Shown: positions 2,047 to 13,517 of the stretch, one piece after another
Numbering within the stretch: position 1 is the stretch's first letter
Layout of the letters: every line of letters starts with the position of its first letter
Assembly: GCA_947259075.1 (NCBI GenBank)
Contig: CAMYKQ010000015.1
Location: 4,792 to 68,791, forward strand
Direction: 5' to 3'
Source of the DNA: an uncultured Gammaproteobacteria bacterium
GTDB lineage: Bacteria; Pseudomonadota; Gammaproteobacteria; DRLM01
DNA length: 64,000 nt
Position numbers and translations under genes: made by a program
The notes under the pieces: model-generated
What the model saw: the letters and a program-made list of their open reading frames with translations, nothing else
What the model was told of the DNA's origin: nothing
Databases searched by the model: none

Positions 2047-2063
2047 TTGGCATGTTGAGTGCT
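2047..2063 (+). promoter_or_regulatory. Candidate sigma-54 (-24/-12) promoter
   Basis: TTGGCATGTTGAGTGCT compared with YTGGCACG-N4-TTGCW. GG and GC are at the canonical spacing. It lies about 77 nt upstream of the ATG at 2140. Confidence 0.4.
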
Positions 2064-2139: not shown

Positions 2140-2481
2140 ATGAGACAAACGATGACTCAAGACGATCTTTCCCGGATGGCGCTGGCTTATCAAGGCACGG
2201 GCGCCGTGAGTGCGGAAAACCGCGGATTTGGTTTTAGGCCCGGTTTTTTCGACCGGGACAGCGGCCGGTTTCTCCTGGCGCGCGACGCCGATGGTTTGCC
2301 GGCGAGCGTGCATCGCTTCGATGGATTGCCTGATGAGTGGGTAGTGGACCGCGATGGCGCGGGTTCTCCGCTGGCGGTGAAGCCGTCGGTGGTGCCCGGC
2401 TTCATCCGCGACGGCGCCTTCTTCACCCGCGAACAGGCGGCGCAGCTGGTGCAGTGGGAATTAGATAAATTGGCGAGCTGA
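2140..2481 (+). CDS. Hypothetical protein (113 aa)
   Basis: ATG 2140 is preceded by GAGGAGG. The longer track ORF (2059) lacks an RBS. I recognise no family. Confidence 0.5.
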   Translation: MRQTMTQDDLSRMALAYQGTGAVSAENRGFGFRPGFFDRDSGRFLLARDADGLPASVHRFDGLPDEWVVDRDGAGSPLAVKPSVVPGFIRDGAFFTREQAAQLVQWELDKLAS

Positions 2482-2992: not shown

Positions 2993-5287
2993 TTATTTGG
3001 CGGCGACTTTGCGCACTTGCGCGAGGTCGGTCTGGCCTTTGAACATCTTGGTGATGCCGTCCTGCATCAAGGTGCGCATGCCCTCTTTCATGGAGAGGTT
3101 CTGCAGCTCTTCGGCCGTGCCCTTGTGATAAATGAGGTCTTTGATGCCGCGGCTGGACACCAATAATTCATGGATGCCGGTGCGTCCGCGATAGCCGGTG
3201 CCGTCGCAGGCGGGGCAGCCCACGGCTTTATAGAGGGTGGCCTTGGCCGGGTCGGGACAGATTTCGGCGAAATGTTCCTCGCCGTAATAGCGGCGGATCA
3301 GGGTCAGCTCGTCTTCGTCGGGGTGATAGGTGGTTTTGCATTTTTCGCAGAGAGTGCGCACCAAGCGTTGCGCCATCACCCCTAAAAACGCATCGGAAAA
3401 ACTGATGGGATCGATGCCCAAATCCAGCAGGCGCGTGATGGTTTCCGAGGCGGAGTTGGTATGCAAGGTGGAGAACACCAAGTGACCGGTGAGCGAGGCC
3501 TCGACCCCGGCCTCGGCGGTTTCTTGATCGCGCATCTCGCCGATCATAATCACGTCGGGATCGGCGCGCAGAAATGATCGCAATGCCGTCGCGAAATTTA
3601 GCCCCGCCTTATTATTCATCTGTACTTGCTGCAGGCCCGCTTGAGTGATTTCCACCGGGTCTTCCGCGGTCCAGATTTTACGCTCCGGCGTGTTGATGTG
3701 CGCCAGGATGGCGTGCAAGGTGGTGGTCTTGCCCGAGCCGGTGGGGCCCACCACGAGAAAAATACCGTGGGGATGCTCCACCAGTGACTTGGTCTCGTTG
3801 AGATTGCGCTCGGAAAAATTGAGCTGTTCCAGCGGCGGTGGTTTGTTGGAGGCGAGGATGCGCATGACCACCGATTCGCCGTTGACGGTGGGAATGGTGG
3901 CGACGCGCAGCTCGACGGGTTTGCCTTTAATCTTCACCACGCATTTGCCGTCTTGCGGACGGCGGCGGTCGGAGATGTCCATGCCCGCGGTGATCTTGAT
4001 GCGTGAAACCACGGCGCGGATGTGGCTCGCCGGAATGGTGAGGCTGCGCTGGCACTGGCCGTCGACGCGGATACGCACCGAGGAGGACACCTTGCCTTTG
4101 CCGGGTTCGATATGAATGTCCGAGGCGCGGGCGTTGTAGGATTCACGGATCAGTTGATTCACTAGCTGAATGACCGTGGCTTCGTTTTCATCAACCGCTT
4201 CCACGTCATCGTCGCTGACGCTTTCAATGCCTTCTTCATTGAGGCGATCCACCAATTCATTGATGTCCACCTTGCCTTCGATATTGACCGGGGTTTCGCC
4301 GAGAAATTGCTTGATGTCCTCCGGCAGCGCGACTTTAAAGACATAATTACGCGCGCGCAGCACCCGCTGAATTTCAACGATGCGGCGGTCATCGGTGGGG
4401 TCGTCAATCAGCACCACCACTTCATTGCGGTCGCCCTGAATCGGTACCCAGCATTCTTTCTTGAGATAAGCCTCGTTGATGCCCTTGAGTAATTCCTTGG
4501 GAATTTCGATCTCCGGATCGAAGCCCATGTACGGTACTTGATAATAACGTTCCAGCGAACCGCCGATTTCCGCGGCGCTGAGATTGGCCTCGGTGAGCAG
4601 TAAGTGGGTGACCGAAATACCCTCGCGCGGCGCGCGCTGTTTGAATTCATCGATGCGTTGCTGGGTGATCTTGTCCGATTGCACTAGGTATTCGTAAGGG
4701 TCGCGGGTGCCGCCGAGTTCGTAGCGGAACTGGTTGCCGAGAAAAAAACCGAGCTTAATCGTGTTGCGCAGTTCCGAGTCGGCGAAGGCGCCGCCGTCGC
4801 GGCGGTTGAGCACTTGAATCACGCCGAACAGCACATCTTTGGATTTGATCGGCACCACGATCATCGATTGAGTGCGGAAACCGCTTTTTAAATCGTAGGA
4901 TTTATCAAAGCGCAGATTGGGGTGGATGTTAGTGAGCTCTTCGGCGTTGTAGACGTCGGCGATGCGTACCGGCTTCTGATTGAGGCCCACGTAACCGGCG
5001 ATGGAAGACGTCGATAGCGCGACACGGATCTCTTTGATCTCATCGCCGCTTTTATATTTGGAAACCAGAGCCGGTTCGGTGCGTGAGCGTTGATAGATAG
5101 TGATGCGTTCGGCGTTGAGCAGGGAGAGCAGGTCACCCTCGATCTCCGGCATCACCTCGCGGAAATTAGCCGCTTCCTGGATGCGTTGAATAACCGTGTT
5201 GAGCCGGACTTGAAACTCCAGCTGGCGCTTGAGTTGCTCCGGGTTGGGTTTTTTTTGCGGATCGCCGCTTAAATCATTCATGCTCAT
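2993..5287 (-). CDS. GspE/PilB-family secretion ATPase with an N-terminal GAF domain
   Basis: GAF-like N-terminus, T2SSE_N region, Walker A GPTGSGKTTT, Asp/His boxes, and a C-terminal tetracysteine (CEKC...CPAC). Confidence 0.85.
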   Translation of the reverse strand: MSMNDLSGDPQKKPNPEQLKRQLEFQVRLNTVIQRIQEAANFREVMPEIEGDLLSLLNAERITIYQRSRTEPALVSKYKSGDEIKEIRVALSTSSIAGYVGLNQKPVRIADVYNAEELTNIHPNLRFDKSYDLKSGFRTQSMIVVPIKSKDVLFGVIQVLNRRDGGAFADSELRNTIKLGFFLGNQFRYELGGTRDPYEYLVQSDKITQQRIDEFKQRAPREGISVTHLLLTEANLSAAEIGGSLERYYQVPYMGFDPEIEIPKELLKGINEAYLKKECWVPIQGDRNEVVVLIDDPTDDRRIVEIQRVLRARNYVFKVALPEDIKQFLGETPVNIEGKVDINELVDRLNEEGIESVSDDDVEAVDENEATVIQLVNQLIRESYNARASDIHIEPGKGKVSSSVRIRVDGQCQRSLTIPASHIRAVVSRIKITAGMDISDRRRPQDGKCVVKIKGKPVELRVATIPTVNGESVVMRILASNKPPPLEQLNFSERNLNETKSLVEHPHGIFLVVGPTGSGKTTTLHAILAHINTPERKIWTAEDPVEITQAGLQQVQMNNKAGLNFATALRSFLRADPDVIMIGEMRDQETAEAGVEASLTGHLVFSTLHTNSASETITRLLDLGIDPISFSDAFLGVMAQRLVRTLCEKCKTTYHPDEDELTLIRRYYGEEHFAEICPDPAKATLYKAVGCPACDGTGYRGRTGIHELLVSSRGIKDLIYHKGTAEELQNLSMKEGMRTLMQDGITKMFKGQTDLAQVRKVAAK

Positions 5288-9830: not shown

Positions 9831-10595
9831 GTGTTCGGTTTAGCGCGCTGGTGGCGGCGGCGCGGCTTGCGCGATCCCGGGTTCTCGCCCGAGCAGTGGG
9901 CGGCGACGATGCAAGGCGTGGCCTTGTTGCGTGATTGGTCCCCCGCCGCACTGGCGCGCTTGCGCGAGCAGACGGTATTTTTTCTGCGCGCGAAGACCTT
10001 CACCGCCGCGGAGGGCGCGCGGCTCGATGATGCCGTGCGTCTGCTCATCGCCGCGCAGGCCTGCGTGCCCATCCTGCGTTTGGATATCGATTACTACGAC
10101 GGCTGGCGCGAGCTCATCGTCTACCCCGATACCTTCGTCACCCGCCATCAAGAACACGACGAGGCGGGTGTGCTGCACAGCTGGCGCCAGCCTTCGGCCG
10201 GTGAGGCCTGGTCACACGGCCCGGTGGTGTTGTCGCAAACCGACGTCGAGGAGTCCGCCCGCGCCCGGGACGGCTTTAACGTGGTGATCCACGAAATGGC
10301 GCACAAGCTGGATATGCTGAACGGTGATGCCAACGGTTTTCCGCCATTGCACCGCGAGATGCGCGTGCAGGATTGGGTGAGCGGCTGGTCTGCATCCTAT
10401 GAGGCTTTTTGCGCGGAGCTGGAGGCGGGCGGCGCGCCGGCGCTGGACCCTTATGCCGCGGAGAGTCCGGCGGAATTTTTCGCGGTGATGAGCGAGGCCT
10501 TTTTCGAGCTGCCCGACGAGGTGCTTGCGCACTTCCCTTTACTCTATCCCCAGCTCACGGGTTTTTACCGTTACGATCCCCGCGGCCCCGCCTGA
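9831..10595 (+). CDS. mtfA: MtfA-like zinc metallopeptidase (M90 family)
   Basis: GWRELIVYPD..., SAGEAW..GPVVLS, and the HEMAHKLD zinc motif typical of MtfA/DUF980. Confidence 0.8.
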   Translation: MFGLARWWRRRGLRDPGFSPEQWAATMQGVALLRDWSPAALARLREQTVFFLRAKTFTAAEGARLDDAVRLLIAAQACVPILRLDIDYYDGWRELIVYPDTFVTRHQEHDEAGVLHSWRQPSAGEAWSHGPVVLSQTDVEESARARDGFNVVIHEMAHKLDMLNGDANGFPPLHREMRVQDWVSGWSASYEAFCAELEAGGAPALDPYAAESPAEFFAVMSEAFFELPDEVLAHFPLLYPQLTGFYRYDPRGPA

Positions 10596-10609
10596 GCCCG
10601 TGGCCGCGC

Positions 10610-10769
10610 AAAAAAATAGCGCTGTCCGAAGACAGCGCTATCGCTCAAGGAGGGATGAACGAAAGACGCTTCACAGTTGGTTTGGACACCCGCCGCAGTC
10701 AGGGAAACTGTGGGCTCACTGAGTGTCCAGAAAGATCCGCCGGGGAGCGGATAACTCATCCAGCGGACA
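10610..10769 (-). ncRNA. Candidate sigma-54-dependent small RNA (about 160 nt)
   Basis: It is bounded by the -24/-12 promoter at 10780-10796 and by the terminator AGCGCTGTC-TTCG-GACAGCGCT plus A-T7 (10610-10639, U-run only on the minus strand). The longest minus-strand ORF inside is 19 codons. Internal hairpins lie at 10735-10752 and 10684-10728. An unpaired CCCTCCTT sits at 10647-10654. Confidence 0.45.
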
Positions 10770-10779
10770 TTTCATTTAT

Positions 10780-10796
10780 AGCAATCGATATGCCAA
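10780..10796 (-). promoter_or_regulatory. Sigma-54 (-24/-12) promoter
   Basis: The minus strand reads TTGGCATATCGATTGCT against the consensus YTGGCACG-N4-TTGCW. Only two non-critical mismatches. Predicted +1 is near 10769. Confidence 0.55.
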
Positions 10797-10882
10797 CAGC
10801 TAGCCGTCTATTGTTAATCATCAAGTTAGCTCGAATTCATTGGTGTTTGGAGCGGCAGAATTCTTCATTCTTGTCTAAATTA

Positions 10883-10963
10883 GTCTCCGCATAGAGACAG
10901 ATGGAGACAAGATGGAGGTAAGGAGCTGAACCCAGTGGCAAAGATCTGTCTCCTGACGGAGAC
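10883..10963. promoter_or_regulatory. Dyad-symmetric candidate enhancer-binding sites
   Basis: GTCTCC-TGAC-GGAGAC is a perfect 16-bp palindrome (10948-10963). GTCTCC-N14-GGAGAC lies at 10883-10908. Both contain (T/A)GTC-N10-GAC(A/G). They sit about 100 and 160 nt upstream of the -24 element. Confidence 0.35.
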
Positions 10964-11072
10964 GGCGCGCGTTGTTTCCCAAATAAGAGTGAGATATCAA
11001 AGAAACCGCCCCGGCGGCCGATACGCATGGTGACGATGCCGGTGTTTGTAAGGATGACGGCCAGGAGTAACT

Positions 11073-13517
11073 ATGAGTGACGGCGACAAGGCAGTAAATA
11101 ACGGCGCGCGCAATGTACACGGTGGCGGTGTTTCGTCCGAGCACGCCTTGCTGTTGCGTTGCCGTCAGCGCGCCGAAAAGTATTTGCGCGAGGCGATCAA
11201 GCAGGTCTTCGATAAAACCGATGACCTCTTGTTCGAGCGCAGCAATAAAGACGAAGCCAATGGCGGCGGCGTCAAGTACTTCGACGCCCTGCGTGAATTG
11301 CGGGTCAAGCGTCAGGACCTCACGCAAAAATACCTCGAAGGCTTCGCGCGGGAGCACGACAGCCGTTTGCGCCGGGTGCCAGTGACGGCGAGCAAGTCCG
11401 CGGCGCAGCCGCAACAGGGCGGCGGTTTGTCTCTCATCGATGAAAAGGAACTGGAAGAATCCCTGGCCATCGAGGGGCAGGTGGGCAAGGCCAATGAGCG
11501 TTTCGGCAATCTATTGTTCGCGCTCAGTCAGCGTTACAGCGTCTTGGTCAAGGGCATCAAGGTGGAGGCGGAGAGCCACCCGCTGGCGCCCGATGTCATT
11601 TGTCACGCCTTCCGCGACGCGATCGGCGGCATCGAGCTCAGCGTCGAAATCAAGCTCATCATCTACAAACTCTTCGAGCAGAACACGGTGAAGCAGCTAG
11701 GCCCGGTTTACGAGGAGTTAAATACCCTGCTCGCCGATGCCGGGATTTTGCCGCAACTCAAGGTCGCCGCCGCTGTGCGCACCAGCGACAGCGGGGCTGA
11801 AAAACCCCGTCCCGAAGCCAGCGAGGCCGCCCCCGCCGCGACGACGACCCTGCCGGTGCCGGCCGCCTCCTTGCCGGCGCTCGTCGATCCCGGGGAAGGC
11901 GATGGCGATATCTATCAAACCCTGCAACGTTTGATGAACCTGAAAAAATACGGCGCGCCGGCCGGTGGCGGCGCCGCGGCTGGCGGTGGTAGTGGCGGCG
12001 GTAGTGGCGGTGCGGGCGGCGGGGCCGCCGTGTTGCCGCCGGTACCGGCCGATGCCTTAGTCCACGGCCTGTCTTTATTGCAGCATATGCCGCCGCCTCC
12101 GCCCGAGATCATGGCGGGCGAAGCGGCGATTGCCTACATCAAATCAGGATTGCTGGCGCAGTTGGGTGAGATGGCGGCGGGCAAGGCCATCGATCCGGTC
12201 ACCGACAACACCATCGACGTCATCGGGATGATCTTCGAGTTCATCATCGACGAGCCCAGTATTCCCGAGCTGGTCAAGCGCCTGCTCAATCAGTTGCAAA
12301 TCCCCATTCTCAAAGTCGCCATCGTCGACAAAGAATTCTTCGCCAACAAACAGCACCCCGCCCGCCGCCTGTTGAATACCCTAGGTCACACCAGCATCGG
12401 CTGGAACGACAAGGATGAAACCACCCAAGGACGCCGCTTCGAGAAAATGGAATACACCGTCGGCCGGGTCCTCAAGGAATATGAGACCGATCCCGGCGTC
12501 TTCGCCGAATTGCTGGCCGACTTCACCGCCTTCCTCGCCAGTGAAGGCGATGACGATTTGTTGCAGGACGAGCCGGACGCGGAGACAGTGGCCGAAGAAA
12601 CGGTGGCGCCGCCGCCGGGTAAACACGCCTTCGAGGCCGTGGAGTTGCGTTTGGAGGGGGTGGAGGCGCCGCGCATCGTCCGTGAGTTTTTGCGTAATAC
12701 CTGGCGCCGCGTCTTGGAACGGGTCGCGGCCAGCGAGGGCGTGGAGGGCGATCTCTGGCGTCATCGCGAACAAGTGCTGAGCGATTTACTCTGGAGCGTG
12801 GAACCCAAGACCGGAGAGGACCGCCGCCGCATGGTGGCCCTGTTGCCGCGCCTCTTGGGCGCGCTGCAAGACGGCATGCAATCCGTTGGTTGCACCGCCG
12901 ATGAAATGGACGCCGTGCTCAACGGACTGGAACCCATACACATGGCCTGTCTGCGTGGCGAGGCGCCGCCGCCCGACGCGCCCGAGCCCGAAGCGCCGCC
13001 GCAAGCGGTGGAAGCAGCGCGCCCGCCGGCCTCCGACGAAGTGGCCGATATGATTCGTTCCATCCAGCAAGGCCTGAGCGGCGCCGATCCCTTCAATGAC
13101 GATACCGGCTTCAACAGCGGTGTCGCCAGCGTGGAGCGCGAACTGGCGCGGGTGGCGCGGGGCGGCGAGTTCAACCGTCCGCTTCCCGAGCCGGAAATAG
13201 AAGAAGAGCCGCTCGAAGCCGAAGAAGAGCTCATCGAAGATGAATTCACCGAAATGACCCGCGACATGGCCATGGGCACTTGGCTGGAGTTCGAGCTGGA
13301 AGGTAAAAAGCGCCGCGGCAAACTCGGCTGGAAAAGCGCGGTGATGGGCGAGTATGTCTTCGTCGACCGCCGCTACAAAGTGGTGGCGGAACGCACCTTG
13401 GCCGAATTGGCCGCCGAGCTGCGCGAGGGCCGGGCGCGGGCGGTGGAAAACGTGGCGATGTTCGACCGCGCGCTCGACGCGGTGATGAGCGGCCTGACCA
13501 GCGGCGCGCGCGGCTAA
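11073..13517 (+). CDS. DUF1631-family protein
   Basis: The N-terminal region (LLLRCRQRAEKYL...FDKTDDLLFERS...YFDALRELR) and the conserved C-terminal W.EF...GKLGWKS module are typical of DUF1631. An internal Gly/Ser/Ala and Pro-rich tract is present. Confidence 0.8.
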   Translation: MSDGDKAVNNGARNVHGGGVSSEHALLLRCRQRAEKYLREAIKQVFDKTDDLLFERSNKDEANGGGVKYFDALRELRVKRQDLTQKYLEGFAREHDSRLRRVPVTASKSAAQPQQGGGLSLIDEKELEESLAIEGQVGKANERFGNLLFALSQRYSVLVKGIKVEAESHPLAPDVICHAFRDAIGGIELSVEIKLIIYKLFEQNTVKQLGPVYEELNTLLADAGILPQLKVAAAVRTSDSGAEKPRPEASEAAPAATTTLPVPAASLPALVDPGEGDGDIYQTLQRLMNLKKYGAPAGGGAAAGGGSGGGSGGAGGGAAVLPPVPADALVHGLSLLQHMPPPPPEIMAGEAAIAYIKSGLLAQLGEMAAGKAIDPVTDNTIDVIGMIFEFIIDEPSIPELVKRLLNQLQIPILKVAIVDKEFFANKQHPARRLLNTLGHTSIGWNDKDETTQGRRFEKMEYTVGRVLKEYETDPGVFAELLADFTAFLASEGDDDLLQDEPDAETVAEETVAPPPGKHAFEAVELRLEGVEAPRIVREFLRNTWRRVLERVAASEGVEGDLWRHREQVLSDLLWSVEPKTGEDRRRMVALLPRLLGALQDGMQSVGCTADEMDAVLNGLEPIHMACLRGEAPPPDAPEPEAPPQAVEAARPPASDEVADMIRSIQQGLSGADPFNDDTGFNSGVASVERELARVARGGEFNRPLPEPEIEEEPLEAEEELIEDEFTEMTRDMAMGTWLEFELEGKKRRGKLGWKSAVMGEYVFVDRRYKVVAERTLAELAAELREGRARAVENVAMFDRALDAVMSGLTSGARG

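Follow-up and report, generated by a model that had tools for sequence, protein, structure and literature searches.

A conserved small RNA gene with a predicted sigma-54 promoter between mtfA and a DUF1631 gene in uncultured Gammaproteobacteria

To our knowledge, small RNAs (sRNAs) that depend on sigma-54 are few, and those described, namely Qrr, GlmY/GlmZ, CrcZ and NrsZ, each serve as the chief output of a signalling pathway that is important. Control of an sRNA by a regulator of the NtrC class is established for the pairs LuxO-Qrr, CbrB-CrcZ and NtrC-NrsZ (PMC7602753), Qrr being also treated elsewhere as an sRNA dependent on sigma-54 and its activator LuxO (PMC10162802). At glmY, the regulator GlrR binds three TGTC-N10-GACA sites that lie over 100 bp upstream of the gene, together with integration host factor (IHF) and sigma-54 (PMC3045617). 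The locus described here lies on the minus strand of a 64,000-nucleotide stretch of DNA from an uncultured gammaproteobacterium (contig CAMYKQ010000015.1; the whole stretch is called the window below), in the gap between mtfA and a DUF1631 gene. As judged from comparison with its homologues, it is a stand-alone gene for a structured, conserved and previously uncatalogued non-coding sRNA of about 160 nt (10610-10769, minus strand), with a predicted start and no conserved open reading frame (ORF). That the RNA is non-coding and is transcribed by the sigma-54 RNA polymerase is considered highly probable. The preliminary description had placed it among the sigma-54-dependent sRNAs, and this placement agrees with the conservation of promoter, upstream dyads and structure found here. 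The RNA family is absent from Rfam and is a new member of the class of sRNAs controlled by sigma-54 and an activator, not a new kind of system; the understanding of sigma-54 sRNA systems is left unchanged by it. What is gained is a well-defined family with a promoter, two candidate activator sites, a candidate bend site, a four-hairpin RNA and an invariant putative seed, in which the promoter architecture is unusually complete and clean. We know of no sRNA biology in the uncultured groundwater and soil Gammaproteobacteria to which the family belongs.

Among the described systems, GlmY and GlmZ of the Enterobacterales, which are controlled by GlrR (QseF), are close to the locus in design: all are stand-alone sRNA genes of 150-200 nt with a sigma-54 promoter of the -24/-12 type, predicted in the present case. 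At glmY, inverted repeats bound by the activator are found at several places over 100 bp upstream, and an IHF site separates them from the promoter (PMC3045617); the gene described here has such repeats too, and a candidate IHF site in the corresponding place. The core of the dyads found here, GTC-N10-GAC, is contained in the TGTC-N10-GACA sequence of the GlrR sites. Unlike GlmY, however, the locus has two sites instead of three and a longer specific half-site, GTCTC, and it has no glrK-glrR-like genes adjacent to it. Its RNA carries a C-rich loop complementary to Shine-Dalgarno sequences, which GlmY and GlmZ lack, and the mechanism of GlmZ, activation of glmS with RapZ as adaptor, finds no support at the locus. 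With Qrr1-4, CrcZ and NrsZ it would share an NtrC-class response regulator as driver of the sRNA. CrcZ and NrsZ are encoded just downstream of their own activator genes, whereas the RNA described here is unlinked to any activator gene in the window. The dyads also differ from what we take to be the site sequences of LuxO, CbrB and NtrC.

The preliminary description had proposed a scan against Rfam, and this was carried out with cmscan over 4227 families. At the gathering score no family matched anywhere in the window, and the models of GlmY, GlmZ, Qrr, CrcZ and NrsZ gave no match even in a permissive run (E<=10) on 10400-11200. The only matches of that run were below threshold, centred on the terminator and confined to the last 50-70 nt, and belonged to anti-hemB, mmgR and sau-6072, the last matching the terminator. 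Like anti-hemB (Burkholderia RNA 7) and MmgR of the alpha-proteobacteria, the RNA has a hairpin with a CCUCC loop just before an intrinsic terminator; yet the scores, 23.7 bits against a gathering score of 49.5 for anti-hemB and 17.6 against 41 for mmgR, cover only the last 60-70 nt, and the two stem-loops of its 5' part as well as its promoter type are unrelated to sRNAs of this C-rich-loop type. The likeness is an architectural resemblance and not membership. By analogy with sRNAs with C-rich loops, the expected action of the RNA would be occlusion of ribosome-binding sites. RsaE/RoxS, sX13 and CcsR, which gave no match in the Rfam scan, presumably resemble it in the same manner. NcS25 of Burkholderia was also considered and was found to be unrelated.

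Homologues of the RNA were recovered through the neighbouring mtfA gene. In an MtfA scan of a genome collection, a single locus, from an uncultured groundwater gammaproteobacterium with an MtfA 73% identical to that of the window, had an intergenic region that aligned with the window (L001; nhmmer E = 6e-34). A protein search delineated a tight clade of MtfA proteins at 64-82% identity, beyond which the next relatives fall to 57%. All 11 contigs of this clade that were fetched have an RNA homologue that directly follows the stop codon of mtfA and lies on the other strand, and one extra locus (L098) came from a metagenome scan with an invariant 22-mer. Altogether, 14 homologous copies were recovered besides that of the window, each of them directly behind mtfA, giving a family of 15 sequences, all of which score 150-181 bits with a covariance model built from 14 of them. 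Run on 79 loci whose MtfA proteins are more remotely related, the model gave no match; it gave none at the nearest outgroup locus (L099), which has another gene order, and found no second copy of the RNA in the window. As far as sampled, the family thus appears confined to a small lineage of uncultured groundwater and soil Gammaproteobacteria, the contigs coming from Hainich and New Zealand groundwater and from the soil project PRJNA313136. Within this lineage the RNA is conserved as well as or better than the coding DNA of mtfA (71-90% against 67-83%). The sequence of 12 loci, the window included, reaches past the promoter into the upstream region, and these are the aligned loci to which the following counts of promoter and upstream elements refer.

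A sigma-54-type promoter on the minus strand was already recognised in the preliminary description, and comparison of the loci bears it out. The element TTGGCATATCGATTGCT (10780-10796), which reads TTGGCAT-ATCGA-TTGCT, shows the GG (-24) and GC (-12) of a sigma-54 promoter, set 10 nt apart as in TGGCAC-N5-TTGCW, and the pattern TGGCA[C/T]-N5-nTGC[T/A], with its GG/GC frame, is retained in 12/12 loci. The spacer, five bases long, varies freely and so do the flanking sequences, and such divergence around kept elements is the pattern expected if GG, GC and their spacing are under selection. It had been argued earlier that a chance occurrence of the box within the gap was unlikely. Over the whole window such a match is not rare, TGGCAY-N6-TGCW being found twice against 0.76 occurrences expected. 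A single sigma-54-like string is thus weak evidence, and it is conservation that settles the identity of the predicted promoter. With the RNA start put 12 nt downstream of the GC at -12, the length of the RNA comes to 158-163 nt in every locus. No sigma-70-like promoter was found by a pattern scan of 10300-11300. An overlapping sigma-70 promoter, as present at E. coli glmY, was considered and rejected: the TATAAA after the -12 element lies only 10 nt from the -35-like TTGGCA, is not conserved and was not hit by the scan.

The second sigma-54-like box of the window, TGGCATGTTGAGTGCT (2048-2063, plus strand), is intergenic. Downstream of it by 77 nt come a strong Shine-Dalgarno sequence, GAGGAGG, and the start codon ATG of an ORF of 113 aa (2140-2481, plus strand) that has no Pfam match. 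The box has no GTCTC-N6-GAGAC dyad upstream, so that any activator acting there would differ.

Folding of the window RNA gave a minimum free energy of -66.7 kcal/mol, corresponding to z = -4.8 relative to dinucleotide shuffles. RNAalifold, applied to an independent MAFFT alignment, predicted four elements, with compensatory changes in 13 of 38 pairs. In the model-guided alignment of the 15 sequences 97.9% of the cells are paired and 16/38 pairs have changed on both sides, a count that leans towards structure, as this alignment was fitted to the model. None of 500 shuffles reached the observed values of pairing and double changes, and sliding the partners reduced pairing to 35-51%. The first element, SL1, is a 5'-terminal stem-loop, GUCCGCUGG...CCGGCGGAU (10735-10768, minus strand), in whose helices 1 and 2 all nine pairs change on both sides and 93-99% of the cells are paired; it takes the place of the shorter hairpin ATCCGC-TCCCCG-GCGGAT that had been proposed for this region. 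SL2, a long stem-loop GGACACUC...GGGUGUCC with the apical loop UCCCU (10684-10728, minus strand), is the GGACAC...GTGTCC helix noticed previously, and is now supported by covariation: its helix is 95-100% paired, and its pairs 49/89 and 51/87 swap C-G and U-A in five and seven sequences, respectively. A competing CACAGTT/AACTGTG helix, also suggested earlier, is dropped, being only 72% paired across the homologues and showing no real covariation.

SL3 (10641-10662, minus strand) consists of a 7-bp stem, UCGUUCA/UGAGCGA, and an 8-nt loop, UCCCUCCU (10655-10648), and forms the core of a 29-nt block, GCGUCUUCGUUCAUCCCUCCUUGAGCGAU, that is invariant in 15/15 sequences. The motif complementary to Shine-Dalgarno sequences that the preliminary description saw displayed before the terminator, CCCTCCTT, is indeed present, at 10654-10647. 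Since the invariant U-G pair of SL3 would be an A-C mismatch on the opposite strand, it marks the minus strand as the one transcribed, and the G-U pairs of the fold are compatible with the minus strand only. The fourth element is the predicted intrinsic terminator, AGCGCUGUC-UUCG-GACAGCGCU followed by A-U7 (in DNA, AGCGCTGTC-TTCG-GACAGCGCT and A-T7; 10639-10610). The terminator scan returned it for the minus strand alone, as a stem of 12 pairs; no T-run follows the stem on the plus strand, in line with the earlier view that this is not the terminator of mtfA. The stem is kept in all homologues, two of its pairs with compensatory changes, and the loop varies. The loss of the GG/GC elements or of the terminator in relatives, raised beforehand as a possible outcome, was not seen. 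SL1 and SL2 likewise carry UCCC-type motifs in their apical loops, and CCCUCCC is found in the SL1-SL2 linker of 8/15 sequences.

The region upstream of the promoter contains two dyads, which in the minus-strand reading are GTCTC-CGTCAG-GAGAC (distal; 10948-10963, centre at -186.5 from the predicted start) and GTCTCTATGCGGAGAC, that is GTCTC-TATGCG-GAGAC (proximal; 10883-10898, centre at -121.5), 65 bp apart. An alignment from the promoter to DUF1631 demonstrated that both are conserved in 12/12 loci as GTCTC-N6-G(A/C)GAC, with a spacing from dyad to dyad of 64-66 bp, about six helical turns. The existence of two sites had thus been correctly noted, but the earlier reading of the proximal one as GTCTCC-N14-GGAGAC borrowed an unconserved GTCTCC upstream, and the true unit is GTCTCTATGCGGAGAC. 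Exact GTCTC-N6-GAGAC occurs twice in the 64 kb, both times inside the mtfA-DUF1631 gap, and among 98 fetched loci the dyad is limited to the RNA-carrying ones. Every site has the core GTC-N10-GAC, and 5/24 match the full GlrR consensus TGTC-N10-GACA; this likeness to the sites of GlrR/QseF is a lead on the activator and not an identification, and a literature search for an activator recognising TGTCTC/GAGACA returned nothing relevant. On the promoter side of the dyads, spanning about -59 to -47, is TAACTTGATGATT (10816-10828, minus strand), a YAA-N4-YTGATW block; in reverse complement this pattern gives WATCAR-N4-TTR, the consensus for IHF (PMC3045617). The block aligns in 12/12 loci, perfectly in four (L082, L001/L085, L090) and with one or two mismatches in eight, and is tentatively assigned to IHF. 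The comparison of orthologous intergenic regions that had been suggested at the outset thus yielded conserved -24/-12 elements, conserved dyads and compensatory changes in the helices. A covariance model of the family is now at hand, and the precise DNA motif GTCTC-N6-GAGAC could serve to find the cognate activator and its regulon.

In three relatives, L001 (about 5015-5035, minus-strand reading), L085 and L084, a short terminator-like element, GGGAAAACCC followed by a T-run, separates the IHF-like site from the proximal dyad. The window lacks this element, which may shield the sRNA promoter against antisense transcription arising upstream.

The following course of events may be proposed. An enhancer-binding protein encoded elsewhere, probably a two-component response regulator, would bind both dyads (about -121 and -186) as dimers, and a bend of the DNA at the IHF-like site (about -53) would bring it to the closed promoter complex. 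Hydrolysis of ATP would then open the promoter, and the sigma-54 polymerase would transcribe an RNA of about 160 nt until stopped by the intrinsic terminator, whose hairpin and U-tail could be a module for binding of Hfq. The sRNA would act in trans through the invariant SL3 loop, UCCCUCCU, by pairing with G-rich Shine-Dalgarno regions and blocking translation initiation; in the pairing model, UCAUCCCUCCUUGA of the sRNA would be complementary to the ribosome-binding sites of targets, and the further UCCC-type motifs in the SL1 loop, the SL2 loop and the SL1-SL2 linker would assist. We regard this mechanism as a whole, from sigma-54, the activator dyads and the IHF bend to a trans-acting RNA, as likely. 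The base-pairing step taken by itself, in which the C-rich loops would pair with Shine-Dalgarno regions, is deduced from the architecture and judged to have about an even chance of being correct.

Several observations weigh against this proposal. The seed candidate UCCCUCCU is invariant, and no mRNA complementary to it emerged within the window or the neighbouring genes: a convincing target was not found when duplex energies were computed over both strands of the window, the best duplex being antisense inside a gene, and duplexes with the 5' regions of DUF1631 and mtfA, computed for nine loci, did not surpass those with shuffled sequences. Because only 64 kb of the genome were covered, the negative outcome of the target search carries little weight. 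The stem of SL3 shows no variation and has therefore no covariation support, and its conservation could reflect recognition by a protein instead of base pairing. Motif searches of the 64-kb window found no gene for an enhancer-binding protein and neither rpoN nor hfq. The count of 16/38 doubly changed pairs stems from the model-fitted alignment, and transcription of the sRNA is itself predicted from comparison of sequences.

The alternative that survives best accepts transcription as proposed and makes the RNA a decoy or sponge, whose UCCC/CCUCC loops titrate an RNA-binding protein or mimic the 3' end of the 16S rRNA; in the latter version the RNA would compete broadly for Shine-Dalgarno sequences. 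A short motif is repeated in the loops of SL1, SL2 and SL3 and in the linker, giving three to four UCCC/CCUCC motifs (with CCCUCCC in the linker of eight of the 15 sequences), and repeated loop motifs are a hallmark of the titrating RNAs CsrB, RsmY/Z and CrcZ. The likeness to the 16S rRNA would be that of AUC-CCUCCUU in the RNA to AUCACCUCCUU at the 16S end. Stem and loop of SL3 are both invariant, as suits recognition of a fixed shape, and the searches of the window and of the neighbouring genes returned no specific target. Against this, the C-rich loops of RsaE/RoxS, sX13 and CcsR act by base pairing, a bacterial protein recognising UCCC loops is not known to us, and the lack of a target in 64 kb of a genome says little. 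CrcZ is listed as a sequestering RNA (PMC7602753). On balance, a decoy is doubtful. A more specific form, in which an activator-induced mimic of the anti-Shine-Dalgarno tail of 16S rRNA with several UCCC/CCUCC loops would dampen initiation globally or titrate a protein that binds C-rich RNA, as the sRNA output, unrelated to GlmY, of an envelope-stress system like GlrR/QseF, is considered unlikely.

In the DUF1631 leader, the plus-strand sequence AAGGATGAC (11044-11056), which precedes the ATG by about 20-28 nt, is kept in the closest relatives of the window; in more distant ones the ribosome-binding site or start of DUF1631 shows GAGGGATG or AGGATGAAC. These are partly complementary to UCAUCCCUC of the sRNA, with duplex energies no better than those of shuffled sequences. 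Further upstream, about 50 nt from the start codon, TATCGGC (minus-strand reading, 11017-11023; TATCGAC in L094) is kept in 12/12 loci, with a T-rich block (about 11000-11008) after it, and may belong to a promoter, operator or leader of DUF1631. In the window, the TATCGGC block shares sequence with a weak minus-strand hairpin that resembles a terminator.

A second alternative concerns the dyads. An ordinary regulator, not of the sigma-54 type, might use them as operators to control the divergent DUF1631 gene, and the sRNA promoter would then be activated from elsewhere or be independent of the dyads. The dyads do lie between two divergent units, the distal one about 110 bp from the DUF1631 start codon, and no nearby activator gene ties them to sigma-54. 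The distances measured over the loci, however, argue for a tie to the sRNA promoter. The centre of the proximal dyad is found at -109.5/-110.5 in six loci, at -119.5 to -121.5 in five and at -132.5 in one, so that the proximal dyad ranges from -110 to -132 and the distal one from -175 to -197; the distance to the promoter is thus either fixed or shifted in steps of about 10-11 bp, that is by whole helical turns, as contacts on one face of the helix require. By contrast, calculation from the coordinates places the distal dyad at irregular distances of 86.5 to 117.5 bp from the DUF1631 ATG. Enhancers typically occupy positions such as -110 to -197 and leave room for an IHF-like site before the promoter (PMC3045617). 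A sigma-54 promoter needs such sites, about 80-200 bp upstream and on a fixed face of the helix, and the gap has no other conserved candidate. Operators of DUF1631 are accordingly quite unlikely, and the dyads are preferably read as binding sites of the activator of the sRNA promoter.

With regard to coding capacity, the earlier statement that the longest ORF on the minus strand has 19 codons was in error, because a 62-codon ATG ORF (10759-10571, minus strand) runs through the terminator into mtfA antisense; the conclusion drawn from it, that the RNA is non-coding, stands. The ORF is missing from 14/14 homologues and is found in the window genome only; no ORF is shared by the homologues on either strand, and indels of 1 and 2 nt, not multiples of three, break the frames between them. 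A coding reading of the locus was therefore rejected, paired compensatory changes being seen instead of codon periodicity. That the locus encodes a small protein, as the 62-codon ORF and an 84-aa ORF called over the homologous region in one relative could suggest, is very improbable on these grounds, and equally so is a chance combination of motifs without a transcript, as promoter, dyads, structure and terminator are conserved across loci whose MtfA proteins are only 64-82% identical. The 62-codon ORF is a likely source of false gene calls. The 84-aa ORF, placed over the sRNA homologue by the gene caller of the assembly (L091, 4770-5024, plus strand), has no Pfam match and is probably a mis-annotation.

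The gene neighbourhood, read in the window from 10300 to 11300, places the predicted RNA on the minus strand in the gap between the Peptidase_M90/MtfA gene (9831-10595, plus strand; E=6e-85) and the DUF1631 gene (11073-13517, plus strand; E=8.5e-173), convergent with the former and divergent from the latter. Downstream on the same strand there is only mtfA antisense and no gene. The RNA gene is thus a discrete unit with its own predicted promoter and intrinsic terminator, the latter 15 nt from the stop codon of the convergent mtfA. In contigs of the relatives that are long enough, the neighbours are broadly those of the window, in the order BrkB-type, glutaredoxin, ArsC, (OMP), unknown, MtfA, RNA, DUF1631 and ChaN-PDZ. 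Farther away, a 764-aa protein with GAF, MshEN and T2SSE ATPase domains is encoded at 2993-5287 on the minus strand, and the relatives L088-L090 have it at the same position, upstream of the BrkB/Rrf2-fusion gene.

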